A DNA stretch of 64,000 bases from Thiobacillus sp. (GCA_041639395.1 JBEQCG010000005.1:4854-68853); one strand, 5' to 3'; shown: positions 20,493 through 63,912, counted from the first letter of the stretch. The notes: generated by a model not told the origin, from the sequence alone. Numbers and translations: made by a program.

Positions 20493-20581
20493 GGGCTCTC
20501 CATCAAAATGCGTTGAACAGGCGCGGCGTGTGCGGTCGCGTGTCGCTCCGACCGTCCGCCACGCGCGCGGGTTCCTGGGGT

Positions 20582-20725
20582 TTACTTGTCGAACGGAATC
20601 TCGCCGTCGCGCCGGTAGCGGGCGCGCGCCGAGGGCCGGTACACCCACGCGATCACCGCAAGGAGCGCGAGCGGCGGGCCGACCATCCAGCCGTAGTCAC
20701 GCAGGAAAGCGAGCAGGGTATTCAT
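20582..20725 (-). CDS. CcoQ/FixQ-like small membrane protein (47 aa; below ORF-track cutoff)
   Basis: Hand translation MNTLLAFLRDYGWMVGPPLALLAVIAWVYRPSARARYRRDGEIPFDK; starts 3 bp after the upstream stop. Confidence 0.7.
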   Translation of the reverse strand: MNTLLAFLRDYGWMVGPPLALLAVIAWVYRPSARARYRRDGEIPFDK

Positions 20726-20728
20726 GGG

Positions 20729-21103
20729 TCAGTACCACGGCCCGGGCCAGCCGTAAGGCCCGCCGCCGTACCACCAGCCGCCGTCAAAATTCCAGCGGTT
20801 CCAGTCGGCCAGCCGTTCGTCGCGGCGCACGGCCTTGAGGTAGCTCTGCTGCATGGCGTTGATGACCGCGTCGGGCACGCCCTGGTCGCGCAGGTCGGCG
20901 AGCTGGCTGGCGGTGAGGCGGTAGACGGTGTCGGACGCGCGCATTTTGGCGAGGATGGTGTCGGCGGGCACGCCTTCGCGCGCCAGTGCGACGATTTCCG
21001 GCACGGTGACGCGCGGTGGCGGCGGGCTGCCGAGGGTGGCGCAGCCGCCGGCCAGCAGGGCGGGCACGGCGACGAGGGCAAGACGCAGGGTCGAGGGCAT
21101 CAT
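20729..21103 (-). CDS. Predicted lipoprotein (124 aa)
   Basis: GAGGAG RBS, lipobox LAGGC, G/W/Y/P-rich tail. Confidence 0.8.
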   Translation of the reverse strand: MMPSTLRLALVAVPALLAGGCATLGSPPPPRVTVPEIVALAREGVPADTILAKMRASDTVYRLTASQLADLRDQGVPDAVINAMQQSYLKAVRRDERLADWNRWNFDGGWWYGGGPYGWPGPWY

Positions 21104-21114
21104 GGTGGGTCTCC

Positions 21115-21612
21115 TCAGGCAGCGGCTTCGACGGGTTTCAGCAGCGCGCGCGCGGCGTCGATTTCCGCCTCGGTGCCGTGCACGAACAGCAGGTAGCGGT
21201 CGGCCTTCAGGTCGCGTTCGTACTTGATCGCCTGTTCTTTCGACAGCCCCAGGCCCACCAGGCCTGCGCCCACGGCCGACAGCCCGCCGACCACGGCTGC
21301 GCCTTCGAGCGCGCCCACCAGCGCGGCGGCGAGCGAACCCGCCACCGCCACCGGGCCGATGCCGGGCACAAAGAAGAACGCGCTGCCGAACAACAGCCCC
21401 CACAGGCCGCCCCAGGCCGCGCCGATGCCGCCCCAGGTTTTCATGCGGTCGCCGGTGGTGTAAAAGCCGACGGCGTGTTCTTCGCTTTGATAGCCCTTGC
21501 CGATGATCGACAGGCGCTTAATGTCGAAGCCGCCGCGTTGCAGGGCGCGAATCGCGGTTTCGGCGTCGCTGTGGCGTTCGTAGACGCCGATGACGGAATG
21601 CAGGTCTTTCAT
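21115..21612 (-). CDS. General-stress/DUF1269-like membrane protein
   Basis: AAWGGLWGLLFG..FFVPGIGPVAVAG, AIKYE..LK...LLFVHG pattern; AAGGAG RBS. Confidence 0.75.
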   Translation of the reverse strand: MKDLHSVIGVYERHSDAETAIRALQRGGFDIKRLSIIGKGYQSEEHAVGFYTTGDRMKTWGGIGAAWGGLWGLLFGSAFFFVPGIGPVAVAGSLAAALVGALEGAAVVGGLSAVGAGLVGLGLSKEQAIKYERDLKADRYLLFVHGTEAEIDAARALLKPVEAAA

Positions 21613-22139: not shown

Positions 22140-22844
22140 CTAGCGCGCGGTGCGCACGACATCGACGCCGTGCACCACTTCAAAAATCGACCCCAGCGCG
22201 CGGTCGATCGCCTGCTGCGCGGCGGCGGGCTGGGCCGGGTTCGCGGCGAGTGCGGCTTGCGCCACGTGGATCTGGTCGGCGACGCGGTTGAGCGGCAGGT
22301 AGACCGTGGTGGCGCGCAGCGCTTCGCCCACTTCTTCGAGCGTGGTGCGCGCGGCGGCGGATTGGCCGACCCGCGCCTGCGACTCGGCGTGCTTCACGCC
22401 GGTTTTTGCCTGGCGGGCGAGCACCGGCGCGTAGGCGTCCATTTCGTCGAGGCTGGCGTAGATGGGCAGCAGATCGTCGTAGAACGCCGTGTTGTCGTCG
22501 GCGACGAGGCGGTTTTTGGCGTTGACGATGGCGTCGTTCACGTCGACAAACGGCATGGTGCGCTGCCAGGCCCCGGCGAATTCGCTCGCCACGCGCAAGG
22601 CGCTCTGCGCCAGTTCGGGCGAATCGGCCACCAGGAAGGCGCGCGCCGAGCGCAACTGCTCGACCAGCGCGCGGCCCGACGCGGCAGCGGCGCGCGCGAG
22701 CTGGGGCGAGGCCCAGCCGGCGTCGGCGTCCACGCTCTGGATGTCGGTGAGCGGGGCGGGTGCGGCCAGCGCCGGGCCGGCGAATACGGGCAACAGCGCA
22801 ACGGCGAGTACGGTGCGGCGGAGGGGGCGGGAAAGATGCAACAT
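22140..22844 (-). CDS. Secreted helical protein, YfdX-like
   Basis: Signal peptide; DLLPIYASLDEMD matches DLVPLYASLDAIE of the divergent gene. Confidence 0.65.
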   Translation of the reverse strand: MLHLSRPLRRTVLAVALLPVFAGPALAAPAPLTDIQSVDADAGWASPQLARAAAASGRALVEQLRSARAFLVADSPELAQSALRVASEFAGAWQRTMPFVDVNDAIVNAKNRLVADDNTAFYDDLLPIYASLDEMDAYAPVLARQAKTGVKHAESQARVGQSAAARTTLEEVGEALRATTVYLPLNRVADQIHVAQAALAANPAQPAAAQQAIDRALGSIFEVVHGVDVVRTAR

Positions 22845-22900
22845 GGTGGTCTCCTTGAAGTGCGGTTGGACGACGGCAGCAGGCCGCCTGTGCTATGCGT

Positions 22901-22916
22901 AGCGGGCTTCGTGCCA
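22901..22916 (-). promoter_or_regulatory. sigma54 -24/-12 promoter of the leftward operon
   Basis: TGGCAC-GAAGC-CCGCT with GG-N10-GC spacing; IHF-like ATTCAACAACTTG at 22923-22935. Confidence 0.62.
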
Positions 22917-22990
22917 GTTCTGCAAGTTGTTGAATGCACGGCGTTTACGGGTGTTTTTGGCGCGATGCCTGCGGGCGTTTTGCGCCGCTG

Positions 22991-23055
22991 CGGGGGAAAA
23001 CCCCCGGTCACCGGAGTGGGGGCTTTGCGCCAGCCGGGCCGGGGCATTTCCCCCG
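22991..23055. promoter_or_regulatory. Putative enhancer (UAS) array
   Basis: CGGGGGAAAACCCCCG (22991), weak TGGGGGCTTTGCGCCA (23017), CGGGGCATTTCCCCCG (23040). Confidence 0.6.
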
Positions 23056-23107
23056 CGCTGGTCGGGGTGTGGTGCGCAAGTATTTGATGAATCAGGATAA
23101 ATCGTGC

Positions 23108-23123
23108 TGGCACAGCGCCTGCA
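23108..23123 (+). promoter_or_regulatory. sigma54 -24/-12 promoter of yfdX-HK-RR-cyo
   Basis: TGGCAC-AGCGC-CTGCA, correct spacing, about 45 bp before ATG 23169. Confidence 0.7.
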
Positions 23124-23168
23124 TAGGCTGGGTTGGCACGCTACTGTGCTGCATCCAAGGAGATCGCA

Positions 23169-24443
23169 ATGAACCGTCCGTCCACCCCGCTCGTGCTTGC
23201 CCTGTCCGTTTTTCTCAGCGGCGGGGCGCTGGCGGCCAACCCGCCCGCCCGCATCCTCGAAAACCAGCAGATCGTGCCGCTGCGCACGATCAGCGCCGCC
23301 GACCAGGCCGCACTCTCGCGCGCCGCGATGAAAACGCTCAACCACATCGGCGAGGCGCGTGCCGCGCTCGCCCGCAAGGACGCCGGCACCGCGCGCGCCA
23401 ACCTGCGCCAGGCCGACACTCTGCTCGACATCATCCAGGCGGGTCTGCCCACCGCGCAGGTGCGCGACCAGATCCGGGTGGCCGAAAGCAAGCTCAAACT
23501 GCAATACCAGGACACCAAAGTGGTCGAGCCCGACCTCGTGCCCCTCTACGCCTCGCTCGACGCGATCGAGGACTTTGCCGCCGTGCCGCAGGCGCGCGCC
23601 CACCTCGACCAGGCGCAGGCCAAACTCAAGACCGGCGACAAATCCGGTGCCGCGCAGGAACTGCAAGCGATGGACGCTGCCTTGCTCTACCAGGAAGCCG
23701 ACCTGCCGTTGGCGGCCACGCGCGGTTTTGTGCGCGCGGCCGAAAGCGAACTCGCGCGCGGCAACCTCAAGCTCGCCGACGAACATCTGCGCGCGGCGGA
23801 AGACAACGTGGTGACCTACACCGCCTTTGTCGACGAACCCATCGTCGCCGCCCGCGCCAACCTCGCCCGCGCGCAGCGCAACTACGTCGCCGGCCGGCTC
23901 GACGCCGCCCGCGCCGACCTCGGCCGCGCCGTCACGCAGCTCGACCGTGCTGTCGCCCGCGCCGACGGCGCGGTGAAACAGGACGTGAGCGCGCTCGCGC
24001 AGGATGCCCGTGCACTCGGCGGCAAGCTCGACGCCAGCGCCCACGCCGACGCCCGCGATACCAGCCGCGACCTCTCGCTGCTGTGGCATCGCACCCGCGC
24101 GCTGGCCGACCGCAGCATGGATTACACCGCCGTCGGCTGGAAACGCCTGAGCGTGCACAATCCGGTCGAGCAGCACCTGATCGAGGCGCGCCTGCACGCG
24201 CGCTACGCCGAGATCGACGCCGGGATCGGCAACAACCCGGCGCGCGCCGCCACCGACCTGGCGGAAACCTGGCGCTATCTGGAAGAAGCGCGCGGCACGC
24301 CCGGCATCGCGCCGCACACGCGGCAGACGGTCGAAGCGCTGATGAAACAGCTCGACGCGCTGCGCCAGCCCGGCAGCACGCCGGATGCCGCCGCGCTCGC
24401 CGGGCTGCAAAGCAGCATCGCCGGTGCGCTGCGCAGCCTGTAA
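23169..24443 (+). CDS. Secreted YfdX-family protein with C-terminal helical extension (424 aa)
   Basis: AAGGAG RBS, signal peptide, HIGEARAALARKD...ANLRQA and DLPLAATR segments resembling YfdX from recall. Confidence 0.7.
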   Translation: MNRPSTPLVLALSVFLSGGALAANPPARILENQQIVPLRTISAADQAALSRAAMKTLNHIGEARAALARKDAGTARANLRQADTLLDIIQAGLPTAQVRDQIRVAESKLKLQYQDTKVVEPDLVPLYASLDAIEDFAAVPQARAHLDQAQAKLKTGDKSGAAQELQAMDAALLYQEADLPLAATRGFVRAAESELARGNLKLADEHLRAAEDNVVTYTAFVDEPIVAARANLARAQRNYVAGRLDAARADLGRAVTQLDRAVARADGAVKQDVSALAQDARALGGKLDASAHADARDTSRDLSLLWHRTRALADRSMDYTAVGWKRLSVHNPVEQHLIEARLHARYAEIDAGIGNNPARAATDLAETWRYLEEARGTPGIAPHTRQTVEALMKQLDALRQPGSTPDAAALAGLQSSIAGALRSL

Positions 24444-24485
24444 CGCGCTTGTCCGCGTGCGGCCGATCCGGTACAAGGTGAGCGC

Positions 24486-25916
24486 ATGAAACGCATCTTC
24501 GTGCGCTCGCTGGCCTTTCCCGCGCTCGTTGCCGCCGGGCTGGTCGCGCTGGCGGTGGCGTTTGCGCTGGTGTCGCTGGCGCGCAATCTCGGGCAGTTCG
24601 AGCCGCTGCGCGCGCACACCGCCGCCATGCAGCGGGTGCAGGCGCAGAGTTTGGCCATGCAGTACGCGCTGGCGCGCACGCTGTCGCCCGACGCCCCCGT
24701 CGATCACGCCGTGTTCAGGCGGCTGCGCGACGAAGTCGACAGCCTCGTCGCCGACCCCGCGCTGCTCTCGCCGCAGGGGCAGGCGCGGCTCGAACGCGCG
24801 CGGGTGCTGCTCGACCAGCCGGGCAACGATCCGCGCGCGCAACTGCTCGCCGCCACCACCTTGCTGCACGAGGCGCTGGCCGACGAGAGCCGCGCGCACG
24901 ACGCCCTGCTCGCCAAGGTGGCGGCGCAGGCGCGCTTCGAATTCCAGCTGGTGGCGGCGGCGTTTGCCCTGCTGCTGCTCGCCGGCGCGGTGGCCTGGGT
25001 GGGCGTGCGTCGTCGCGTGCTCGAACCACTGCGCGATCTGGACGCCTGGATGGGACGGCTCGCACAGCATGATTTTTCGCGCATCGAGGCCCGTCGCGCC
25101 GACAGCCTGATTGCGCCGCTGTTTGCGCGCTACAACGCCATGGTCGAGCGGCTGGCCGAGCTCGAAGCCGCGCAGGCCGCGCGCGAAGCCAGCCTCGAAG
25201 CCGAAGTGCGCAGCGCTACCCGCGAACTCATCGCGCACAACCGCAGCCTGGCCGAAGCCGAAAAACTCGCCGCCGTCGGCGAACTCGCCGCGAGCCTCGC
25301 GCACGAACTGCGCAATCCGCTCGCCGGCATCACGCTCGCGCTTTCCAATCTCCAGCACGACCTGGCCGACCCGGCCGCGCGCGAGCGGCTCGCCGCCGTG
25401 CTCGCCGAGCTCACCCGGCTGGCGCGATTGATGAACCGTCTGCTCGACGCGGCGCGTCACGCGCCCGAAGCCGCGCAGCGCGTGCATCTGGCGCGTGCGG
25501 TCGAAGAAGTGGCGGCGCTGGCGCGCTACCAGATCGCGCCCGACATCCGGCTAGACGTGGACATCGACGTCGCCTGCCAGTGCCTGTTGCCGCCCGACCG
25601 CCTGCGCCAGGCCGTGCTCAACCTGCTGCTGAACGCCGCGCAGGCGCTGTCGGGACACGGCCGCATCCGTGTCGTCGGCCGGCGCGAACACGACACCGTC
25701 GAGCTGGCAGTGGAAGACGACGGCCCCGGCTTTCCCGAGGCGATGCTGCGCGACGGCGTGACCGCGTTTGCCAGCCACCGCGACGGCGGCACCGGGCTCG
25801 GGCTCGCGTCGGTGCGCCGTTTCGCGCAGGACCACGGCGGCCGCTTTGCGCTGGCCAATCTGAGCCCGCACGGCGCGCGCGTGTCGCTTTTTCTGCCTTG
25901 CCCCGAGCCTGCCTGA
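24486..25916 (+). CDS. Membrane sensor histidine kinase (2 TM, HAMP)
   Basis: AHELRNPLAGI H-box, NLLLNA N-box, DDGPG and GGTGLGL G-boxes. Confidence 0.93.
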   Translation: MKRIFVRSLAFPALVAAGLVALAVAFALVSLARNLGQFEPLRAHTAAMQRVQAQSLAMQYALARTLSPDAPVDHAVFRRLRDEVDSLVADPALLSPQGQARLERARVLLDQPGNDPRAQLLAATTLLHEALADESRAHDALLAKVAAQARFEFQLVAAAFALLLLAGAVAWVGVRRRVLEPLRDLDAWMGRLAQHDFSRIEARRADSLIAPLFARYNAMVERLAELEAAQAAREASLEAEVRSATRELIAHNRSLAEAEKLAAVGELAASLAHELRNPLAGITLALSNLQHDLADPAARERLAAVLAELTRLARLMNRLLDAARHAPEAAQRVHLARAVEEVAALARYQIAPDIRLDVDIDVACQCLLPPDRLRQAVLNLLLNAAQALSGHGRIRVVGRREHDTVELAVEDDGPGFPEAMLRDGVTAFASHRDGGTGLGLASVRRFAQDHGGRFALANLSPHGARVSLFLPCPEPA

Positions 25917-25918
25917 CC

Positions 25919-27295
25919 ATGCCGCACACGCTCCTCATCATCGAAGACGAAACCCTGCTCGGTCAGGAACTGCAACGCCATTTCCAGCGCGAAGGCTGGG
26001 ACGCGCGGCTCGCCAGCACGCTGGCCGAAGCACGCCGGCTGCTGTTCGATGAAGCGATCGAACCGTCGGCTGTGCTCTCCGACATGAACCTGCCCGACGG
26101 CAACGCGCTCGACCTGCTGGAGGCCGCGCGCGAAGCGGGGCTGGCGGGCGAATGGGTGTTCGTCACCGGCTACGGCGGCGTGCCCGATTCGGTGCGCGCG
26201 CTCAAATTGGGCGCGCTCGACTTTCTGGAAAAACCGGTCGATATGGCGCGGCTCGCGCTGGTGCTGAACGGCGCGGCGCGCAGCGCACGCGCCGAGCGGC
26301 GGCTGGCCGACCACACCGCCGGCGAAGGCCGGCGTTTCACGCCCGAAGCCTACGCCGGCGAATCGGCCGCCGCGCGCGAGGCGCGCGACATGCTGGCGCG
26401 GCTCGCCGGGGTGCCGTTTTCGGCGCTGTTGATCGGCGGCGAAACCGGCACCGGAAAGGGGCTCGCCGCGCGCATCCTGCATTACGCCGGGGCCCGCCGG
26501 CGCGGCCCGCTGGTCGAAGTGAACTGCGCCGCGCTGCCGCGCGAACTCATCGAAGGCGAACTCTTCGGCCACGAAGCCGGCGCGTTCACCGGTGCCAAGG
26601 GGGCGCGGCGCGGCCTGGTCGAACAGGCGCACGGCGGCACCTTGTTCCTCGACGAAATCGGCGAGCTGCCGCTGGATTTGCAGGCCAAACTGCTGCGCGT
26701 GATCGAGGACAGCCAGATCCGCCGTCTGGGCGGCGAACGCGCCGTGCCGGTGGACGTGCGCTTTGTCGCCGCGAGTAACCGCGACCTCGAAGCCGAGGCG
26801 CGCAACGGCGGCTTCCGCGCCGATCTCTATCACCGGCTGTCGGTGTTTCGCCTGGTGCTGCCGCCGCTGCGTGCGCGGCGCGAGGACATCCGTCAGCTGG
26901 TGCCGCTGTTCGTGCGCGAATTCAACGCCAAGGCCGGCAAGCGCGTGAGCCGCATTGGCGAGCCGGTGTGGTCGCAACTGCTCGCGCACGACTGGCCGGG
27001 CAACGTGCGCGAACTCCGCAACGTGGTCGAACGCTGCGTACTGTTCGCCGACGGCGAGGACTTTCCCGCGCGCTGGCTGCAACTGTCGGCCGCGCCGGCG
27101 TCGCCCGCGCCCGCCGGCGACGGCGTGTGGCTGCCGCTCGACGGCAGCCAGAGCCTGGAAGACATGGAACGCCAGCTGGTCGAAGCCGCGCTGGCGCAGG
27201 CCGGCGGCAACGTCACGGGGGCTGCGCGCCTCTTGAAAAGCACGCGCGAAACCCTGCGCTACCGGGTGGAGAAATTCGGCCTGGGCAAGGGCTGA
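25919..27295 (+). CDS. sigma54-dependent response regulator (NtrC/AtoC class)
   Basis: Receiver EDE..SDMNLPD..KP; GETGTGK, GAFTGA, LDEIG; Fis-type HTH. Confidence 0.95.
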   Translation: MPHTLLIIEDETLLGQELQRHFQREGWDARLASTLAEARRLLFDEAIEPSAVLSDMNLPDGNALDLLEAAREAGLAGEWVFVTGYGGVPDSVRALKLGALDFLEKPVDMARLALVLNGAARSARAERRLADHTAGEGRRFTPEAYAGESAAAREARDMLARLAGVPFSALLIGGETGTGKGLAARILHYAGARRRGPLVEVNCAALPRELIEGELFGHEAGAFTGAKGARRGLVEQAHGGTLFLDEIGELPLDLQAKLLRVIEDSQIRRLGGERAVPVDVRFVAASNRDLEAEARNGGFRADLYHRLSVFRLVLPPLRARREDIRQLVPLFVREFNAKAGKRVSRIGEPVWSQLLAHDWPGNVRELRNVVERCVLFADGEDFPARWLQLSAAPASPAPAGDGVWLPLDGSQSLEDMERQLVEAALAQAGGNVTGAARLLKSTRETLRYRVEKFGLGKG

Positions 27296-27312
27296 GCAGA
27301 GGGAGGGACAAG

Positions 27313-28200
27313 ATGGCAGGAAAGCGTTGGGCCGCGCTGGCGGCCACGATGTTGCTCGGCGGCTGCGCGCTGCGCGATGCGCCCATCATCGCGCCGCCGG
27401 GGCCGGTGCTGCACACCACGGCAGAACTCTTCGTCGTCGCCACGCTGCTGATGCTGATCGTGGTGCTGCCGGTACTGGTGCTGACCGCGTGGTTTGCCTG
27501 GCGCTACCGCGCGTCGCGCCGCGCGGCCGACTACGCGCCGGAGCTGGCCGGCTCGACGCGCATCGAGTTCTTCATCTGGGCAGCCCCCGTGGCCATCGTG
27601 CTCACCCTGGGCGTGCTGGTCTGGCATTACACGCACAAGCTCGATCCCTACCTGCCGCTGGGGCCCCAACCCTACGTCGTCGAGGCGATCGGGCTGGACT
27701 GGAAATGGCTGTTCCTGTACCCCGAGGACGGCGTCGCCAGCGTCGGCACGCTGGCGTTTCCGGCCGACCGCCCGCTGGAATTGCGCATCACCACCGACAC
27801 GGTGATGAATTCGCTGATGATCCCCGCGCTGGGCGGGCAGATTTACGCGATGGCCGGCATGGAGACGCGGCTCAATCTGAAGGCCGACCGCCCGGGCGTG
27901 TACGCGGGGCGCAACTACCAGTTTTCGGGCAACGGCTTTCCCGCGCAGCGCTTCGACGCGCACGCGCTCGACGCCGCCGGCTGGCAGGCCTGGCTGGCGG
28001 GCGCAAAGGCGGCCGGTGCGCTCGACCGGGCGGGCTATCTGGCGCTGGCCAAACCCGGTGTGCTGGCGTCGCCGCAGCTGTATTCGGCGTACCCCGCCAC
28101 GCTGTTCGACGCCATCGTCGGCCAGTACCGCGACCCGGCGATGTGCCGGCCCCTGTCCCTTGCTGCTGGAGCATCCCGTGTTCGGACGACTGGGCGTTGA
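27313..28200 (+). CDS. cyoA: Ubiquinol oxidase subunit II
   Basis: Lipobox LGGC, two TM, DWKWLF.YP, TVMNS..IPALGGQIYAMAGM; no CuA motif. Confidence 0.92.
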   Translation: MAGKRWAALAATMLLGGCALRDAPIIAPPGPVLHTTAELFVVATLLMLIVVLPVLVLTAWFAWRYRASRRAADYAPELAGSTRIEFFIWAAPVAIVLTLGVLVWHYTHKLDPYLPLGPQPYVVEAIGLDWKWLFLYPEDGVASVGTLAFPADRPLELRITTDTVMNSLMIPALGGQIYAMAGMETRLNLKADRPGVYAGRNYQFSGNGFPAQRFDAHALDAAGWQAWLAGAKAAGALDRAGYLALAKPGVLASPQLYSAYPATLFDAIVGQYRDPAMCRPLSLAAGASRVRTTGR

Positions 28201-30139
28201 CGCGCTTCCCTTCTACAGCGGCATCGCGGCCGGCGGTGCGCTGGTCACCGTGCTGGGCGCGCTGGCGATTGCCGCGCTGCTCACCCGTTACCGCAAGTGG
28301 GGCGTGCTGTGGCGCGACTGGCTGACCAGTTGCGACCACAAGAAAATCGGCATCATGTACATCGTCATCGCGCTGGTGATGCTGCTGCGCGGCTTCATCG
28401 ACGCGGCGATGATGCGCGCGCAGCAGGCGATGGCGCTGGACAGCGGCGGCTATCTGCCGGCCGAGCATTTCGCGCAGATTTTTTCCTCGCACGGCACGAT
28501 CATGATCTTCTTCGTGGCGATGCCGTTTCTCACCGGGCTCATCAATTTCGTCGTGCCGCTGCAACTCGGCAAGCGCGACATGACCTATCCCTTCCTCAAT
28601 CTGGCGAGCCTGGCGCTGACCGCCGCCGGGGCCGGGCTGATGCTCCTGAGCCTGGCGCTGGGGCGCTTTTCCACCGCCGGCTGGACCGGCTATCCGCCGT
28701 ATTCGGAGCTGGGCTTCAGCCCGGGCGTGGGCGTCGATTACTGGATCTGGGCGACCATGCTCGCCGGCGTCGGCTCGACCCTGTCGGGGGTGAACTTCAT
28801 CGCCACCATCCTGTTCGAGCGCGCGCCGGGCATGACGCTGATGCGCATGCCCATGTTCTCCTGGACGGCGCTGTGCGCATCGATCCTGATGGTGTTCGCG
28901 TTTCCCGGGCTGACCGTCGCCACGCTGATGCTGGCGCTCGACCGCGCGTTTGATTTCCAGTTTTTCAGCAACGGGCTCGGCAACCCCATGCTGTACATCA
29001 ACCTGTTCTGGATCTGGGGCCACCCCGAGGTATACATCCTCATCTTGCCGGCCTTTGGCGTGTTTTCCGAAGTGGTGGCGACCTTCTCGCGCAAGACGCT
29101 GTTCGGCTATCCCTCGATGGTGTATGCCACCGCCGCCATCGCGCTGTTGTCCTTTGGCGTGTGGCTGCATCACTTTTTCACCATGGGCGCGTCGGCGAAC
29201 GTCAACGCCGCCTTCGGCATTGCCACCATGGTGATCGCGATTCCCACCGGGGTGAAGGTGTACGACTGGCTGTTCACGATGCATCGCGGGCGCATCGAAT
29301 TCCACTCGTCGATGCTGTGGGCGATGGCCTTCATGGTCACCTTCGTCATCGGCGGCATGACCGGCGTGATGCTGGCGATTCCGCCCATCGACTACCTGGT
29401 GCACAACACCGCTTTCCTCGTCGCGCACTTTCACAACATGCTCATCCCCGGCGCGCTGTTCGGCTACTTTGCCGGCTACGCCTACTGGTTTCCCAAGGCC
29501 TTTGGCTTCACCCTCGACGAACGCTGGGGCAAGCGCGCGGTCGGTTTCTGGGTGGCGGGTTTCTGGCTCGCCTTCATGCCGCTGTACGCGCTGGGTTTTC
29601 TGGGCATGCCCCGGCGCATGGAGCAATACAGCGATCCCGCCTGGCAGCCGCTTTTGATCGTCGCCGCCGTCGGCGCGGGGCTCATCGCCTGCGGCATCGC
29701 CAGCCAGATCGTGCAGCTGGTGGTGTCGATCCGCCGGCGCGCGGCGCTGAGGGATACCACCGGCGACCCGTGGGACGGCCGCACGCTCGAATGGGCCACC
29801 GCCTCGCCGCCACCACCGTGGAACTTTGCCGCCACCCCGGTGGTGCACGGGCTCGACGCCTACGCCGCGATCAAGGCCGGGCGCGCGCCGGCGGACACAT
29901 TGCCGCTGACCGACATCGAACTGCCGCGCAACACGCCGCTGGGCGTGGCGGTGCTGGGGCTGTCTTTCCTGTTCGGCTTCGCCATGATCTGGTGGATATG
30001 GTGGCTGGCCGTGCTCGCCGGGCTGGGGCTGCTCGGTGTCATCCTCCTGCGCGCCTTCGACGACCATCCAGAGAAAACCGTATCCGCCGCCGAGCTTGCG
30101 CGCGACGATGACACTACGCTTGCGGAGGGCCGCGCATGA
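28178..30139 (+). CDS. cyoB: Ubiquinol oxidase (bo3-type) subunit I
   Basis: GTG start after GGAG (MFGRLG); HGTIM, WGHPEVY, WLHH, HFHN; quinol-site R/D/H/Q equivalents (RGFIDA, HFAQ). Confidence 0.95.
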   Translation: MFGRLGVDALPFYSGIAAGGALVTVLGALAIAALLTRYRKWGVLWRDWLTSCDHKKIGIMYIVIALVMLLRGFIDAAMMRAQQAMALDSGGYLPAEHFAQIFSSHGTIMIFFVAMPFLTGLINFVVPLQLGKRDMTYPFLNLASLALTAAGAGLMLLSLALGRFSTAGWTGYPPYSELGFSPGVGVDYWIWATMLAGVGSTLSGVNFIATILFERAPGMTLMRMPMFSWTALCASILMVFAFPGLTVATLMLALDRAFDFQFFSNGLGNPMLYINLFWIWGHPEVYILILPAFGVFSEVVATFSRKTLFGYPSMVYATAAIALLSFGVWLHHFFTMGASANVNAAFGIATMVIAIPTGVKVYDWLFTMHRGRIEFHSSMLWAMAFMVTFVIGGMTGVMLAIPPIDYLVHNTAFLVAHFHNMLIPGALFGYFAGYAYWFPKAFGFTLDERWGKRAVGFWVAGFWLAFMPLYALGFLGMPRRMEQYSDPAWQPLLIVAAVGAGLIACGIASQIVQLVVSIRRRAALRDTTGDPWDGRTLEWATASPPPPWNFAATPVVHGLDAYAAIKAGRAPADTLPLTDIELPRNTPLGVAVLGLSFLFGFAMIWWIWWLAVLAGLGLLGVILLRAFDDHPEKTVSAAELARDDDTTLAEGRA

Positions 30140-30741
30140 ATACGCTTGCCACACACGCCCCGCACGACGAAGCCAATGCCCCCGACAACAGCGTCGTCGC
30201 GCTGGGCTTCTGGATTTTTTTGCTCTCCGACCTGGTGCTGTTCCTGCTGCTCCTCACCAGCTATCTGGCGCTGCTGCCCAACACCGGCAGCGGGCCCGGC
30301 CCCACCGCCTTGTTCGACCTGTCGCGCACCGCGCTGCAAACCGGCGCGCTGCTCCTGTCCAGCCTCACCTGCGGGCTGGCGACACTGGCGCTGGGCGAAG
30401 CCCGCCGCCGCGCGCTGCTGGGCTGGCTCATCGCCACAGCGCTGTTCGGGGTGGCTTTCATCGGCCTGGAACTGGCCGAATTCAGTGGCTTGCTCGCGCG
30501 CGGCGCGGCCCCGCAGGCAAGCGGTTTTCTGTCCGCTTACTGGTTGCTGGTCTCGACCCACGGCGTGCACGTCAGCGCCGGCCTCGTGTGGATCGTGGTG
30601 CTCGCGGCGCAGATCGGGCTGCGCGGACTCACGCCCCGCATCGTCTCGCGCTTCACGCGCTTTGCGCTGTTCTGGCACATGCTCGACGTGGTCTGGATCG
30701 GCATCTATTCCTTTGTGTATCTGTACGGGAGCCTGCCATGA
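30136..30741 (+). CDS. cyoC: Ubiquinol oxidase subunit III
   Basis: GFWIFLLSD, FLSAYWLLVSTHGVHV, FWHMLDVVW. Confidence 0.93.
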   Translation: MNTLATHAPHDEANAPDNSVVALGFWIFLLSDLVLFLLLLTSYLALLPNTGSGPGPTALFDLSRTALQTGALLLSSLTCGLATLALGEARRRALLGWLIATALFGVAFIGLELAEFSGLLARGAAPQASGFLSAYWLLVSTHGVHVSAGLVWIVVLAAQIGLRGLTPRIVSRFTRFALFWHMLDVVWIGIYSFVYLYGSLP

Positions 30742-31028
30742 CGCGCACGCAACTGGCCGCCGGATTCGCGCTTGCCGTGGGCCTCACGGTGCTGCCCTTC
30801 GCGGCGGTCATGGGCGGCGCGCTGTCGCGCGAATCGCTGCTGGCGCTGATCGCCGGCAGCGGACTGTTCCAGGTGGTGGTGCACCTGCGGCTGTTTCTCG
30901 ACCTGCGCAGCGGCGGGCGCGGCACCGCGCGCGTGCTCGCCACCGTATTCGGCGTGCTGCTGATGGCGATCATGCTGGTGGGCACGCTGTGGGTGATGCG
31001 CGATCTGCACCTGCGCATGATGCTGTAA
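30738..31028 (+). CDS. cyoD: Ubiquinol oxidase subunit IV
   Basis: QVVVHLRLFL, GTLWVM; ATGA overlap with cyoC. Confidence 0.9.
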   Translation: MTRTQLAAGFALAVGLTVLPFAAVMGGALSRESLLALIAGSGLFQVVVHLRLFLDLRSGGRGTARVLATVFGVLLMAIMLVGTLWVMRDLHLRMML

Positions 31029-31042
31029 GTGCGCCCGCAGAC

Positions 31043-32344
31043 TCAGGCGTGGCCCTCGATGGGGTTGCCGTAGAGCGGGCGCGTGCCGGCGCGGGTGCCG
31101 ACCACGTAGGCAATGCCGGCGGCGAGCATCACCGGCACCGCCAGCGCGTATTGCCCGGTCATTTCCAGCACCATCACGATAGCCATCAGGGGTGCCTGCG
31201 TGGCCGCCGCCAGCGCCGCCGCCATGCCGATCACCGCCGTGGCGGCGGGCGTGCCCACCCATTCGACTGGCAACACGCCGAGCGCGGTGTCGCCGAGCAG
31301 AAAACCGCCGGCGGCCCCGATGAACAGCGTGGGCGTGAACAGGCCGCCGACCGCGCCCGAGCCCGCGCTCGCCAGCGTCGCCAGAAACTTGATCGCCAGC
31401 ACCAGGAGCAGCCATTCGGCCAGCACACCACCGTGCAGCACGCGCGACACCGTGCTGAAGCCGTTGCCCCACACCTCGGGCGCGAGCGCGGCGAGAATGC
31501 CCGCCACCAGCCCGCCCGCCGCCAGCCGCGCGGGCAGCGGGCCGATATGCGCGAAGGCGCGGCGGCTCGCCGCCACCGCATGCAGCAGCGCTGCACCGAG
31601 CGCGCCGCAGAGCAGTCCGGCGACGGCGGCGAACAGCAGGCTGCCGCTGTCGGCCTGGATCGACGGCATGGCGTAGAGCGGCTGCGACAGCCCCAGTCCG
31701 TGGATCAGCACGCTGGACGCCGCCACCGCGATCAGCACCGGGGCCACGGTGTGGCGCGCCATGAATCCCAGCGCGAGTTCGAGCACGAAAATCACCCCGG
31801 CGATGGGCGCGTGATACGCCGCGCCGATACCCGACGCGATGCCGCACACCAGCAGCGCGTTGCGCTGTTCGGGGGCCAGCCGCACCGCGCGCCCGAGCAC
31901 CACCGCTGCCCACGCGGCGAGCTGCACCATCGGCCCTTCGCGTCCGACCGACGCGCCGCTCACCACCGACACCAGCGACGAGGCGCTGCGCGCGAGCGTG
32001 GTGCGGTCGTTGAGCTCGGCCTCGCCGGCGCGCGCAGCGTCGATGTAGTCGATATGCTTTTCGCCGCGCGGGCCGCGTGCCGCCCAGCGCGCGCCCAGCC
32101 AGAGCACGCCGCCGGCGATGAGCCCGCCGGCCGCGCCGATGACGATGCGCAGCCACGGCGGCAGCGCGGCCGCAGCGGCGACCAGTCCCGCGTCCTGCGA
32201 ACTCAGCCACCACTCGCCCACACCGATCAGCGTGCGAAACGCCGAGGTGACGCTGGCCGCGAGCAAGCCCGCCACGGCGGCCCACAGCCAGAACAGGGCG
32301 GCGGGCGCGGGCGGGGTGCGGGGGGCGGTGTCGGACGCGGGCAT
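31043..32344 (-). CDS. clcB: ClC-family chloride channel, ClcB-like
   Basis: GREGP, GGLFTP, PLY motifs; multi-TM. Confidence 0.82.
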   Translation of the reverse strand: MPASDTAPRTPPAPAALFWLWAAVAGLLAASVTSAFRTLIGVGEWWLSSQDAGLVAAAAALPPWLRIVIGAAGGLIAGGVLWLGARWAARGPRGEKHIDYIDAARAGEAELNDRTTLARSASSLVSVVSGASVGREGPMVQLAAWAAVVLGRAVRLAPEQRNALLVCGIASGIGAAYHAPIAGVIFVLELALGFMARHTVAPVLIAVAASSVLIHGLGLSQPLYAMPSIQADSGSLLFAAVAGLLCGALGAALLHAVAASRRAFAHIGPLPARLAAGGLVAGILAALAPEVWGNGFSTVSRVLHGGVLAEWLLLVLAIKFLATLASAGSGAVGGLFTPTLFIGAAGGFLLGDTALGVLPVEWVGTPAATAVIGMAAALAAATQAPLMAIVMVLEMTGQYALAVPVMLAAGIAYVVGTRAGTRPLYGNPIEGHA

Positions 32345-32413
32345 GTGCGCATCCTACCGTGATCAGCGCCTGAAACACTGGCGTGCGCGGAGGCGATCGC
32401 GCACACTTCGCGC

Positions 32414-33085
32414 ATGAAATTCCTGCTACCCCTGCCGCATCACGAACTGCACCCGCTGGCCCGCCTGCGTGCCTGGCATCGCCTGCTTGCGGCGGGGTTG
32501 GCGGGCTTGATGACCGGCGCGGCGATGGCCGGCGCGCTGTGGGAGACGCGACTGCTCGGCGGCTGGCTCGCCGCCGCGCTGGTGTATCTCGTCGTCGCCT
32601 GGTGGGGCGTGGGCCGGCTCGACGCGGCGCACACCCGGCTGCGCGCGTCGAGCTTCGACCCCGGCGTGGCGGCGCTGGTCGCGCTGGTCGTCGCGGCGTC
32701 GTGGGTGAGCCTGGTCGGCGTGCTGCTGGTCACCCACGCCGCGCGCCAGTTCGACGGGCTTGCGCGCTGGGGCCACATCGGGCTGGCGTTCGCCGCGCTG
32801 GCGGCGACCTGGCTGTTGATCCAGACGGTGTTCGCACTGCATTACGCGCGCCGCTACTACCGCGAGGATCGCGGCGGGCTGGTGTTTCCCGGCACCACCG
32901 CGCCCACCTACCTCGACTTCGCCTACTTCGCGGCGGTGATCGGCATGACCTCGCAGGTCGCCGACGTCGGCATCGCGCGGCCTGCGTTGCGCAGGCTGGT
33001 GCTGGCGCACGGGCTGATTTCTTTTGCCTTCAATCTGATGGTGCTGGCGCTGGTGCTCAATCTGGTGGCCGGCGCGCTGGGCTGA
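32414..33085 (+). CDS. DUF1345-family membrane protein
   Basis: FALHYARRYY, P.YLDFAYFA..IGMTSQVADV, AHGLISF.FN. Confidence 0.88.
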   Translation: MKFLLPLPHHELHPLARLRAWHRLLAAGLAGLMTGAAMAGALWETRLLGGWLAAALVYLVVAWWGVGRLDAAHTRLRASSFDPGVAALVALVVAASWVSLVGVLLVTHAARQFDGLARWGHIGLAFAALAATWLLIQTVFALHYARRYYREDRGGLVFPGTTAPTYLDFAYFAAVIGMTSQVADVGIARPALRRLVLAHGLISFAFNLMVLALVLNLVAGALG

Positions 33086-33117
33086 ACGGCCCCATGGAAT
33101 CCGCCGCGCCGGCCCGA

Positions 33118-33222
33118 CGGGGCATACGCGCCAATCGAAACGGGGGATATCCCCCGATTGCTGGCGCTTCCCAGAATAATCCAAGCTGAATCAATCGGTT
33201 GCGATCTGGCACACAGCCTGCT
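33118..33222 (+). promoter_or_regulatory. UAS + IHF site + sigma54 promoter of the sqr operon
   Basis: CGGGGGATATCCCCCG (33141-33156); AATCAATCGGTTG exact IHF consensus (33189-33201); TGGCAC-ACAGC-CTGCT (33207-33222). Confidence 0.75.
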
Positions 33223-33266
33223 GTAAGGGAGTCATCCACGCTCGCGTGTTTATTCAGGAGACTCCC

Positions 33267-34565
33267 ATGACCCCACAAATTCCCTCGTCCCGTCCGCACG
33301 TTGTCGTGCTGGGCGGCAATTTTGCCGGCTTTGGCGCGGCGCAGAAAATCCGTGAATTCGCCGGCGACGCGGTGCGCATCACCGTGGTGGATCGCAAGTC
33401 GCGCCTGCTCTACGTGCCCAATATTCCGCTCGAAGTGTTCGAGAACCGCAACCCGGCGGCGAGCCTGTTCATGGACATCGTCAAGCCGCTGGCCGACGAC
33501 GGCATCGACTTTGTGCGCGCCGAGGTGAACGCCATCGACCCGGTGGCCTCGACGGTGACGTGGACGCCCGACGAGCGTCCCGGCGCGGCGAGCGAAACCC
33601 ACGGCTACGACTATCTGGTGGTGGCGCTGGGCAACCGGCTGGCGTTCGACCGCATCGAGGGCTACGCCGAACACGGCCACAGCCTCACCGACACGGTGCA
33701 GGGCGAAAAGCTGCGCCGCTACCTGCACGAAGACTATCGCGGCGGGCCGATTGCCATCGGCTCGGCGCGCTTTCACCAGGGCGACGGCGCACGCGGGCTG
33801 GAACCCTACCCGCACGGTTCGATTCCCTACGCGCTGGCCGCCTGCGAAGGCCCGCCGGTGGAGGTGATGCTGTCGATGGCCGACTGGCTGAAGCGGCACA
33901 AACAGGGCGGCCCGGACAAGGTCACCGTGTTCACGCCGGGCGAATTGATCGCCGAGGACGCGGGGGTGCAGGTGGTCGATCAGCTGCTCGGTATCGCCGG
34001 CAAGATGGGCTTCCACTATCTCAACAAGGTCGGTGACATCGAACGCCTCACTGCGCACGGCGTCGAGTTTGCCGATGGCCGCAGCGTCGAGGCCGAACTC
34101 AAGATCGTGTTCCCCGACTGGCGCGCGCACGAATTCCTGCGCGGCCTGCCGATTGCCGACAGCGAAGGTTTCATCGTCACCGATCTCACCATGCGCAACC
34201 CGGCGTTCCCGAACGTGTTTGCGGTGGGCGACTGCGCAGCGGTGACGGTGCCCAAGCTCGGTGCCATCGGTCACCAGCAGGCCGAGATCGTCGGCCGCCG
34301 GCTCGCGCACGAACTCGGCCGGCTGGACGACCCCGGCGAGCCGCTCGCACCGGTGGTGTACTGCATCGGCGACATGGGTAGCGGCCAGGCGTTTTACATC
34401 CGCTCCAACAGCTGGTTCGGCGGCGACACCCAGGTGCTGAAAATGGGCCGCGTGCCGCATCTCTTGAAGATGCACTACAAGACGATGTTCTACGAACGCC
34501 ACGGCAAGGTGCCGGCCTGGGGGCTGGATGCCGCCGAGCTGCTGGCGGAAAAAGTGTTTGCCTGA
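33267..34565 (+). CDS. sqr: Sulfide:quinone oxidoreductase (type V/SqrE-like)
   Basis: VVVLGGNFAG FAD fold, ACEGP and YCIGDMG cysteine pair, AVGD..VPKLG. Confidence 0.78.
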   Translation: MTPQIPSSRPHVVVLGGNFAGFGAAQKIREFAGDAVRITVVDRKSRLLYVPNIPLEVFENRNPAASLFMDIVKPLADDGIDFVRAEVNAIDPVASTVTWTPDERPGAASETHGYDYLVVALGNRLAFDRIEGYAEHGHSLTDTVQGEKLRRYLHEDYRGGPIAIGSARFHQGDGARGLEPYPHGSIPYALAACEGPPVEVMLSMADWLKRHKQGGPDKVTVFTPGELIAEDAGVQVVDQLLGIAGKMGFHYLNKVGDIERLTAHGVEFADGRSVEAELKIVFPDWRAHEFLRGLPIADSEGFIVTDLTMRNPAFPNVFAVGDCAAVTVPKLGAIGHQQAEIVGRRLAHELGRLDDPGEPLAPVVYCIGDMGSGQAFYIRSNSWFGGDTQVLKMGRVPHLLKMHYKTMFYERHGKVPAWGLDAAELLAEKVFA

Positions 34566-34727: not shown

Positions 34728-34943
34728 ATGGCCAATGCCCTGCAACGGGAAGCGATCCCGACCCTCAACGCCGGAGGTGATTTCGCCTCGGTCGTGCTGC
34801 GCGTGCTGCTCGGCGCGGCGATGCTGTTGTGGCTCGCCGCCGGCATGTTCGTGTGGACGGCGCTCGCGCTGTTCACCCTGCTGCTGGCGACGCTGCGCCT
34901 GCCCTTCGTGCTGCTGGGGCGCCTGATGGCGCGTCGGCCATGA
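34728..34943 (+). CDS. Small membrane protein (71 aa)
   Basis: AAGGAG RBS, long hydrophobic stretch, ATGA overlap with emrA. Confidence 0.7.
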   Translation: MANALQREAIPTLNAGGDFASVVLRVLLGAAMLLWLAAGMFVWTALALFTLLLATLRLPFVLLGRLMARRP

Positions 34944-35932
34944 CGCGGGGGCGCATCGTGGCGATCGCGCTGGTGTGCTCTGCGGTGGCGCTGGCGGGTG
35001 GCGCGGCCTGGTGGCGCGTGGCCAGCCGCGAGGTGTCGACCAGCGACGCCTACGTCGGCGCGCAGGTGGTGCAGATCGCGCCGCAGATCGGCGGGCGGGT
35101 GAATTCGGTCGCGGTGTGGGAAGGCCAGTCGGTGAAGCGCGGCGACGTGCTGTTCCGCATCGACCCGGCCCCCTACGAACTGGCGCTCGACGCCGCGCGC
35201 GCGCGGCTTACCCAGGCGCGCGAAGGCGCGCGCGCCGGGCAGGCGGCGGTGGGCGCGGCGCGCGCCGAAGTGCAGGCACAGGCGCAAACCGCGCACAACG
35301 CCGAATCGCTCGCGGCGCGCGACACCGCGCTGGTGGCACGCGGCTTTCTCTCACCGCAGGCCGGCGAAACGGTCGACGCCCAGGCCGCCGCGGCGCGCGC
35401 GGCCACCCGCGCCGCGCGCGAACGCGAAGCGCAGGCGGTGGCCGCCGCCGGCGCGGCGGGGCGCGACAACGCCGGCATTCGCGCGGCCGAGGCGGCGCTC
35501 GCGCAGGCGCAGCTCGATCTGGCGCACACCGTGGTGCGCGCGCCGGCCGACGGGCGCATCAGCCAGTTGACGTTGCGGCCCGGAGCCATGGTCGAGGCCA
35601 GCACGCCGCTGTTCGCGCTGGTCGATTCGAGCCGCTACTGGGTCGATGCCAACTTCAAGGAAACCGATCTGGCGCAGATCCGCAGCGGGCAGCGCGCCAG
35701 GGTCACGCTCGACATGCAGCCCGGCCAGGTGTACCGGGGGTCGGTGATCGCCATCGGTGCCGGGGCGGGCAGCGCGTTTTCGCTGCTGCCGCCAGAAAAC
35801 GCCAGCGGCAACTGGGTGAAGGTGACGCAGCGGGTGCCGGTGCGCATCCTGCTCGACGGCGTCGAAGCGGGTGCACTGCCGGCGGTGGGTGCCAGCGCAA
35901 CCGCCACGGTGATGCTTGGCCATGACGGCTGA
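34940..35932 (+). CDS. emrA: EmrA/HlyD-family membrane fusion protein
   Basis: STSDAYV, APQIGGRV, VDANFKET, PPENASGNWVKVTQRVPVRI. Confidence 0.9.
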   Translation: MTRGRIVAIALVCSAVALAGGAAWWRVASREVSTSDAYVGAQVVQIAPQIGGRVNSVAVWEGQSVKRGDVLFRIDPAPYELALDAARARLTQAREGARAGQAAVGAARAEVQAQAQTAHNAESLAARDTALVARGFLSPQAGETVDAQAAAARAATRAAREREAQAVAAAGAAGRDNAGIRAAEAALAQAQLDLAHTVVRAPADGRISQLTLRPGAMVEASTPLFALVDSSRYWVDANFKETDLAQIRSGQRARVTLDMQPGQVYRGSVIAIGAGAGSAFSLLPPENASGNWVKVTQRVPVRILLDGVEAGALPAVGASATATVMLGHDG

Positions 35933-59360: not shown

Positions 59361-59487
59361 TGGTGCGCCGTATCCGGGTTTGCACGATTCCGGTGCATGT
59401 TGTGCCGGAGAAATTCGAGCAATATGCGTGAAAGCCCCGACCTATGAGGGTTCCGGGTTCCGGGATTTGATTGGCACAATGTTTGCT
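59361..59487 (+). promoter_or_regulatory. NtrC sites + sigma54 promoter of nirBD
   Basis: TGCACGATTCCGGTGCA (59381-59397, GCAC-N7-GTGC) plus upstream half-site; consensus TGGCAC-AATGT-TTGCT at 59472-59487. Confidence 0.85.
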
Positions 59488-63853: not shown

Positions 63854-63912
63854 AACACGTTGCCGACGTCTTGGTGGATTTGAACCGTGTCGGCAAAGTG
63901 TTGCCGACCTAC
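63854..63912. repeat. Family A REP-like doublet
   Basis: AACACGTTGCCGAC (63854-63867) inverted against GTCGGCAAAGTGTT; ends TTGCCGACCTAC. Confidence 0.65.

Follow-up and report, generated by a model that had tools for sequence, protein, structure and literature searches.

We analysed a 64,000-nt stretch of a Thiobacillus sp. genome (GCA_041639395.1, JBEQCG010000005.1:4854-68853; hereafter the window), and conclude that three 16-bp dyads in the block between positions 22,901 and 33,222, all located upstream of promoters of the sigma54 (-24/-12) type, are very probably the upstream activator (enhancer) sites of the NtrC-family response regulator encoded at 25919-27295 in the same block. An earlier note on the window had proposed this assignment from a shared palindrome and a conserved promoter geometry, and the proposal gains support from the dyads found at orthologous loci, from the rank of the three promoters in a genome-wide scan, from the co-occurrence of motif and regulator in another family, and from two genus-mates of the window's genome (G021 and G015; genomes, families, loci and contigs carry our own G, f, L and C numbers). 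The mechanism itself is textbook; what is new is the regulon and the motif assigned to an uncharacterised regulator. We infer binding, activation, transcription starts, operon extents and the stimulus from sequence comparison.

All the elements listed in the earlier note are present in the window, namely, the palindromes at 22991, 23040 and 33141, and, ahead of the two rightward promoters, weaker sites at 23017 and 33118 that begin exactly 23 bp before the strong sites at 23040 and 33141. The description of the strong sites as 16-bp palindromes applies in full to the one at 33141, but that at 23040 is imperfect (Table 1). The distances of 68 and 66 bp from strong site to TGGCAC can be read directly at 23108 and 33207, and the 22991 dyad, which the divergent promoters share, is 117 bp away from TGGCAC on the rightward side and 90 bp away on the leftward side. 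All three target promoters carry the -24 GG and -12 GC elements (TGGCAC-N5-TTGCW), and transcription is predicted to start near 23133 from the yfdX-long promoter, near 33232 from that of the oxidoreductase and near 22891 from that of yfdX-short. The hexamer GAATCA, said to precede TGGCAC by 19 bp in both rightward promoters, is indeed found there, at 23089 and 33188. The sequence matches reported for integration host factor (IHF) are present as well: the site at 33189-33201 (AATCAATCGGTTG) fits the consensus WATCAANNNNTTR, and the leftward promoter has an IHF-like site, ATTCAACAACTTG, which differs from the consensus at one position and is spaced from CTGGCAC just as the site at 33189 is. A TCAA-N4-TTR box, exact or near-exact, recurs at the same offset as 33189 in G250, G165, G444, G456 and G459. 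The genome has five genes assigned to the HU/IHF family as a whole. As the earlier note had also stated, the motif is distinct from the NtrC boxes at nasA/nirB: the sigma54 promoters on that side of the window (55505, 59472) are accompanied by TGCAC-type boxes instead, e.g. TGCACGATTCCGGTGCA at 59381. A second TGGCAC (23134-23153, TGGCACGCTACTGTGCTGCA) lies 26 bp downstream of the yfdX-long promoter, with its -12 GC one base too far away; the counterpart in G021 (TGGCACACCAGGTGC) is canonically spaced. This could be a second sigma54 promoter in tandem, or the vestige of one, and the start predicted from it would land in the Shine-Dalgarno region.

Table 1. Predicted regulatory sites and genes in and around the block, in window coordinates
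Feature	Position	Strand	Description
Dyad CGGGGGAAAACCCCCG	22991-23006		Predicted upstream activator site common to both divergent promoters
Second ('weak') site TGGGGGCTTTGCGCCA	23017-23032		91 bp before the rightward TGGCAC
Promoter-proximal dyad CGGGGCATTTCCCCCG	23040-23055		68 bp before TGGCAC; imperfect, arms CGGGGC/CCCCCG
Second site CGGGGCATACGCGCCA	33118-33133		89 bp before TGGCAC
Promoter-proximal dyad CGGGGGATATCCCCCG	33141-33156		Perfect 16-bp palindrome, 66 bp before TGGCAC
Sigma54 promoter of yfdX-short	22901-22916	-	TGGCACGAAGCCCGCT (minus strand, 22916->22901)
Sigma54 promoter of yfdX-long/kinase/regulator	23108-23123	+	TGGCACAGCGCCTGCA, TGGCAC-N5-CTGC
Sigma54 promoter of the oxidoreductase operon	33207-33222	+	TGGCACACAGCCTGCT, TGGCAC-N5-CTGC; kept in G021
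IHF-like site ATTCAACAACTTG	22923-22935	-	One mismatch to WATCAANNNNTTR; abuts the leftward -24 element
IHF consensus match AATCAATCGGTTG	33189-33201	+	Exact fit to WATCAANNNNTTR; 5 bp before CTGGCAC
yfdX-short	22140-22844	-	234 aa, secreted YfdX-family protein, PF10938; predicted target of the leftward promoter
yfdX-long	23169-24443	+	424 aa, YfdX domain (PF10938) and C-terminal extension; first gene of the predicted autoregulated operon
Sensor histidine kinase	24486-25916	+	HisKA and HATPase_c
Sigma54-dependent response regulator	25919-27295	+	REC, AAA+ with GAFTGA, Fis-type helix-turn-helix (HTH); proposed binder of the dyads
Region with cyoABCD	27295-31030		bo3-type quinol oxidase; cyoABCD starts 17 bp after the regulator stop codon
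ClC channel gene	31043-32344	-	After cyoABCD; followed by the DUF1345 gene
Oxidoreductase resembling type V sulfide:quinone reductase	33267-34565	+	432 aa, PF07992; first gene of the predicted third target operon
EmrA/EmrB-type efflux genes	34937-37457	+	TIGR00998, TIGR00711; downstream of the oxidoreductase
Candidate further leftward unit	19017-21612	-	yflT-like (PF11181), lipoprotein, FixQ-like 47-aa open reading frame (ORF), DegQ/HtrA protease (TIGR02037)

Whether such a motif is frequent in random GC-rich DNA, a doubt raised together with the original proposal, was addressed by scanning the genome (3,626,211 bp, 62.6% G+C). Three copies of CGGGGG-W4-CCCCCG, with at most one mismatch, stand 66-117 bp upstream of TGGCAC-N5-CTGC promoters. 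The pattern CGGGG[GC]W4[GC]CCCCG occurs three times genome-wide, all in the block, against about 0.25 expected by our own base-composition estimate; likewise, allowing up to one mismatch to CGGGGGWWWWCCCCCG returned three matches, all in the block, and two mismatches returned 10 scattered ones. Within the window, the looser CGGGG-N6-CCCCG gives three matches against 0.36 expected, and one of 100 window shuffles also reached three. This last figure and the high G+C content are what could be said for the palindromes having arisen by chance, from GC-rich composition beside a fortuitous TGGCAC. We regard this as extremely improbable, given that all three W4-centred copies lie within 10 kb and upstream of sigma54 promoters, and that the features are kept in 26 other genomes, so that chance is contradicted by the comparative data presented below.

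The palindromes might also be structural, that is, GC-rich hairpins acting as terminators or belonging to a family of repetitive extragenic palindrome (REP)-like repeats. The site at 33141 does come after the DUF1345 gene, and its minus strand (33156-33141) was flagged as terminator-like, with a 6-bp GC stem, a 4-nt loop and then TTTCGATT. However, no minus-strand gene ends at 33141, the plus-strand tail is not T-rich, and three copies in a genome do not constitute a repeat family. Moreover, the spacing between the orthologous sites and the -24/-12 promoter that follows them is fixed in all cases, and the sites keep their position and their outer GG/CC, while many of them, such as TGGTTCATATCCCCCG and TGGTGGATATGCCCCG, have no comparably strong hairpin. 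The terminator reading of the 33141 palindrome was therefore weighed and rejected, and a structural role for the palindromes in general appears very unlikely.

The genome-wide search for motif plus -24/-12 element that the earlier note had suggested was carried out with a weight matrix trained solely on sites from other genera, scanned together with the -24/-12 pattern. The window's three promoters were the top three of 436 promoter-like sites in the genome, with 20.1, 18.4 and 18.4 bits, and the next matches, both intragenic, scored 13.7 and 13.5 bits. Taken singly, the dyad at 33141 (20.1 bits) is the highest promoter-associated site in the genome, and those at 23040 and 22991 score 18.4 and 15.2 bits, respectively. 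G444 and G455 both have a 16-mer identical to the 33141 dyad, positioned 68 bp ahead of a sigma54 promoter. Promoter-associated matches on C99 and C102 were set aside as intragenic. Other strong matrix matches (e.g. C133:1184, C4:105749 and C5:68725, the last being window position 63872) were treated as chance; they lie within open frames of 300-800 codons, have no -24/-12 match within 300 bp and are not tRNAs. When the matrix was applied to 27 loci (370 kb), 44 of the 54 matches of at least 15 bits fell in the 3% of sequence located 50-215 bp upstream of -24/-12 matches, and most of the exceptions were either upstream of promoters with a non-T first base (GGGCAC, AGGCAT) or a coding coincidence in the kinase gene. 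One 15.6-bit sequence, TGGATGAAATCAACCG, recurs in the kinase coding sequence of family f41 (L165:6893, L166:1557, L167:6828 and L168:7084); a conserved peptide most probably accounts for it, although an intragenic site of the regulator is a conceivable alternative. Two f46 genomes share an extra dyad, CGGTGGATTTAAACCG (17.9 bits; L161:1144 and L163:32), roughly 3 kb away from the system, with no recognised -24/-12 match nearby at either place; it may represent a further target or a conserved coincidence.

The regulator is rare in its own genus, an orthologue being found in 2 of 24 genus-mates (G021, 91% identity; G007, 78%). A sample of 400 genomes of the order yielded full-length orthologues of the kinase in 8, and the counts within two of the families concerned were 13 of 28 and 9 of 27; a contig scan with the kinase alignment caught generic catalytic-core patterns and returned unrelated kinases only, with no orthologues. 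We compared 26 orthologous loci, from 26 other genomes in five families of the order, the regulators being 57-91% identical. The loci with upstream sequence have one or two dyads of 6-4-6 form upstream of a -24/-12 promoter heading the orthologous operon. Conservation of the motif upstream of orthologues, which the earlier note had named as a check, thus takes the form of the same tandem-dyad design in 26 other genomes. The loci can be grouped into two classes by geometry. In class I (the window's family and f41), where yfdX-long, kinase and regulator genes stand behind the promoter at all loci, the distance to TGGCAC is 66-69 bp from the start of the proximal dyad and 89-91 bp from the second, which is thus 22-23 bp further out, and a TCAA-N4-TTR box ends 5-6 bp before CTGGCAC; some loci have additional dyads at about 100, 117 or 139 bp. 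The proximal position is held in the class I promoters of six of the seven orthologue-bearing f41 genomes and of G303. The position equivalent to the 23017 site (89-91 bp) is filled in G303, G165, G250, G444, G445, G456, G452 and G447, i.e., in nearly all class I promoters, suggesting that the weak sites of the window are real second sites. In class II (f46, G113 and G156), two dyads 30-32 bp apart lie 116-203 bp upstream of the promoter. Class II systems are transcribed divergently from an efflux operon, whose products are a membrane-fusion protein, an RraA-like protein and a resistance-nodulation-division (RND) pump. In f46 and G113 (e.g. L069, 3792-8962, of G170, and likewise L070 and L071), there is no yfdX gene and the dyad pair occupies the shared intergenic region; on the efflux side, no -24/-12 match turned up.

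Comparison with the closest relative, G021, is informative at finer scale. The yfdX intergenic region has drifted apart between the two genomes but retains several islands, namely both promoters, the IHF-like boxes, GGGGGCTTTGCGCCA and the dyad positions: the leftward promoter TGGCACGAAGCCCGCT is identical, TGGCTGAAATACCCCG stands at the position of the 22991 dyad, and GGGGGCTTTGCGCCA, which lies within the 23017 weak site, is identical at 15 of 15 positions despite its diverged flanks. In G021, the oxidoreductase gene (92% identical) directly follows the regulator gene and has its own TGGCAC-N5-CTGC promoter and a site, TGGTTCATATCCCCCG; the counterpart of the 33118 site, at the equivalent place, is TGGCGCATTTGCGCCA. 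The oxidoreductase upstream regions were compared by eye; MAFFT misplaced the sites owing to indels. No cyo/ClC/DUF1345 block separates regulator and oxidoreductase genes in G021, suggesting that this block splits in the window what is a tight unit in the relative.

Over all aligned sites, the general motif is a 6-4-6 dyad, YGG-N3-W4-N3-CCR, with an invariant outer GG/CC and an AT-rich centre throughout. The inner arms vary: they are GGGGG or GGGGC in the window, GGGGG, GGTGG or GGTTG in f41, and GGTTG, GGTGG and some GGGGG in f46. The lineages therefore overlap, with the G/C run commonest in the window's family and f41 and the GGTTG/CAACC arms dominating f46. Accordingly, the motif CGGGGG-W4-CCCCCG as first put forward is present and specific to the block, but its G5/C5 run is not required, since GGTGG, GGTTG and GGTTC arms occur. 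The weak sites of the window also match the general form. So does CGGGCGTTTTGCGCCG (22972-22987, below 9 bits), which precedes the 22991 dyad by 19 bp and is separated from the leftward TGGCAC by 71 bp. The recognition helix of the regulator reads RETLRYRVEK in the window's family, and its variable position is E or D in f41 and N in f46; the arms change in step, from mostly G/C-rich to mostly of the GGTTG type, which is suggestive only.

The motif and the regulator also tend to occur together. In f41, the composite GGNKSATATSMNCC-N51-76-TGGCAY was found in all nine genomes that have the system (20 matches) versus 4 of the 18 that lack it (one match each), with no match to a reversed control pattern (our own one-sided Fisher test, 1.5e-4). 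Within the window's genus, G015 has an orthologue of the oxidoreductase (59% identical; L154, C1:320471-321730) and no detected orthologue of the regulator, and neither promoter nor dyad lies upstream of its gene, suggesting that the oxidoreductase is wired differently within the genus. On the other hand, several points weigh against our assignment. G015 is a single case, and the absence of the regulator from it is uncertain, because the assembly is only 67% complete. The sites for the matrix were initially selected by eye, and the added loci come from the same genera as the training loci, which leaves the cross-validation independent only in part. The weak sites of the window reach at most 9.4 bits (9.4 at 33118, below 9 at 23017), the offset at the leftward promoter is 90 bp instead of 67 bp, and G021, for all its proximity, has several degenerate left arms (TGGCTG..., TGGTTC...). 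The sole metatranscriptome with the locus (X18) offers only low-depth contigs, one of them bridging the intergenic region, and these may include carried-over DNA. Furthermore, eight other sigma54 activator genes in the genome match at E<=1e-60, so that the dyads could be bound by one of these, or by a repressor or modulator, their nearness to the two-component system being coincidental. We consider this unlikely, since the motif travels with the kinase and regulator orthologues over five families although most neighbouring genes differ, since it heads the regulator's own operon at the orthologous loci with upstream sequence, and in view of the f41 contrast given above. The regulator at 25919-27295 accordingly remains our strongly preferred candidate for the dyad-binding protein.

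The product of that gene has the domains expected of such an activator (PF00072, PF00158, PF25601 and PF02954, the last being HTH_8), and its translation reads ...GHEAGAFTGAKG..., which includes the GAFTGA loop. Neither the kinase nor the regulator matched any NCBIfam equivalog (AtoSC, ZraSR, NtrBC and others) at cut-off. Sigma54 itself is encoded by an rpoN gene at C8:19585-20991 (TIGR02395, 466 bits, above cut-off). The yfdX-long product matches the YfdX entries 6uxt, 3dza and 6a02 of the PDB, and its orthologues lie upstream of the kinase gene in G021, G303 and f41. The best PDB match of the oxidoreductase is 3h8i/3h8l (6.9e-51), deposited as 'NADH oxidase', which we take to be the type V sulfide:quinone reductase (SQR) of Acidianus ambivalens. 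The emrAB genes are probably co-transcribed with the oxidoreductase gene; an HlyD-family gene follows the oxidoreductase gene in G021 as well. This operon is a predicted target solely in the window's own lineage.

On the leftward side, yfdX-short belongs to the predicted regulon, and so, probably, do the genes beyond it. A similar gene set stands behind the same site elsewhere. In G444, an unlinked operon of yfdX-short and a yflT/DUF1269-like gene, about 30 kb away, has the same site at the same distance, an IHF-like box and a promoter; G165 and G447 have similar composite matches, in the former about 25 kb away from the system and in the latter on another contig. In f41, a unit of PRC-barrel and lipoprotein genes lies downstream of the regulator gene, preceded by a small membrane ORF in at least two genomes, and the lipoprotein, PRC-barrel and yflT-like genes lie behind sigma54 promoters with the same site. 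Since the G444 and f41 units match the leftward genes of the window, the leftward unit likely extends past yfdX-short, although a 527-bp gap stands between yfdX-short and the next leftward genes. The FixQ-like ORF of this unit (20582-20725, minus strand, 47 aa) scores 28.3 bits with PF05545, against a cut-off of 29, and resembles, by eye, the small membrane ORF that opens the sigma54-driven unit after the regulator gene in G444 and G456 (f41). It looks like a conserved partner of the predicted stress regulon rather than an oxidase subunit. In the rightward direction, a hairpin scan found no terminator-like hairpin between the regulator gene and cyoABCD, and given the short gap between them, cyoABCD may be read through from the autoregulated promoter. 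The neighbourhood seems to be kept beyond the predicted regulon, as a GH15 glucoamylase-like gene (16399-18747 in the window) and a ClC gene accompany the two-component system in f41 (L066, L067) as they do in the window.

Taken together, these observations suggest the following model. The adjacent kinase would phosphorylate the regulator, whose dimers would then bind the tandem dyads, two helical turns apart in the window and three in another lineage, and form an active AAA+ ring there. An IHF-type bend next to the -24 element would let this ring contact the sigma54 holoenzyme at TGGCAC-N5-CTGC, leading to the open complex. The yfdX-long/kinase/regulator promoter would thereby be subject to positive autoregulation, possibly with read-through into cyoABCD, and the other promoters under control would be the divergent one of yfdX-short and that of the SQR-like oxidoreductase with emrAB. 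As to the stimulus, our guess is envelope or periplasmic stress, based on the outputs (YfdX, HtrA, small membrane proteins and lipoproteins, efflux), on a layout similar to that of ZraPSR, and on the habitats, the window's genome occurring in sediment and mine-drainage metagenomes. Tentatively, the locus could represent an undescribed sigma54 envelope-stress response, patchily distributed in the order and analogous to ZraPSR, with YfdX as core output and perhaps as feedback partner of the kinase sensor. Its lineage-specific add-ons would then be the SQR-like oxidoreductase and EmrAB in the window, the FixQ-like/PRC-barrel/lipoprotein unit in f41 and the divergent RND pump in f46. A literature search found no paper linking YfdX to sigma54. 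If the envelope-stress reading is correct, the locus would be the first defined regulatory circuit for YfdX proteins outside the enterobacterial EvgAS context, and would tie the YfdX family to a defined stress circuit that recruits a protease, small membrane proteins and lipoproteins, an SQR-like oxidoreductase and efflux pumps by lineage. More generally, a motif, a promoter architecture and a regulon would be assigned to an uncharacterised sigma54 two-component system that is patchy over five families, and the sites would offer an example of an enhancer motif drifting (from GGGGG to GGTGG or GGTTG arms) under a fixed geometry.

Among named systems, AtoS/AtoC provide the best-scoring models for the kinase and the regulator, yet both scores are far below cut-off (NF008468, 142.2 vs 646; NF008469, 340.6 vs 714), the regulon is unrelated, and no ato genes lie near the locus. 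NtrB/NtrC provides the mechanistic template. At glnAp2-type enhancers, tandem dyads on one face of the DNA, about 70-140 bp upstream, act through looping, with IHF at some promoters, and the NtrC sites have the form TGCACC-N5-GGTGCA. The present system likewise combines a REC-AAA+-Fis-HTH activator, tandem phased upstream dyads and a sigma54 promoter, and its IHF-like sequences may mark a bend. However, the regulator falls short of the NtrC model (TIGR01818, 334.6 against a cut-off of 558.6), and the window dyads are G/C runs about a W4 centre, with TGCAC boxes occurring elsewhere in the window. FisR of Cupriavidus and Acinetobacter is a one-component sigma54 activator of sqr/pdo with an N-terminal regulatory domain, and its gene adjoins sqr/pdo (PMC7315123). 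Our locus resembles it in pairing a sigma54 activator with a gene of the sulfide:quinone reductase family behind a -24/-12 promoter. Unlike FisR, the regulator here has a receiver domain and a cognate kinase. The oxidoreductase looks like a type V SQR, a search of the block identified no pdo gene, and it is YfdX and stress proteins that form the conserved core of the predicted targets, with the oxidoreductase added only in the window's genus. The closest parallel in layout is ZraPSR, in which the gene of a periplasmic protein is divergent from the kinase/sigma54-regulator operon, activator sites are shared in the intergenic region, and autoregulation is positive. ZraPSR of E. coli and Salmonella is a sigma54-dependent two-component system of envelope stress (reviewed in PMC4987338). 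Here too, a periplasmic-protein gene is divergent, both promoters are predicted to be sigma54-dependent with shared sites, and autoregulation is predicted. However, the ZraS and ZraR equivalogs are missed by a wide margin (NF007688, 120.3 vs 479; NF007689, 273.9 vs 760), the periplasmic partners are YfdX proteins (PF10938) and not ZraP, the site sequence differs, and the predicted regulon includes an extra SQR-like/emrAB operon.

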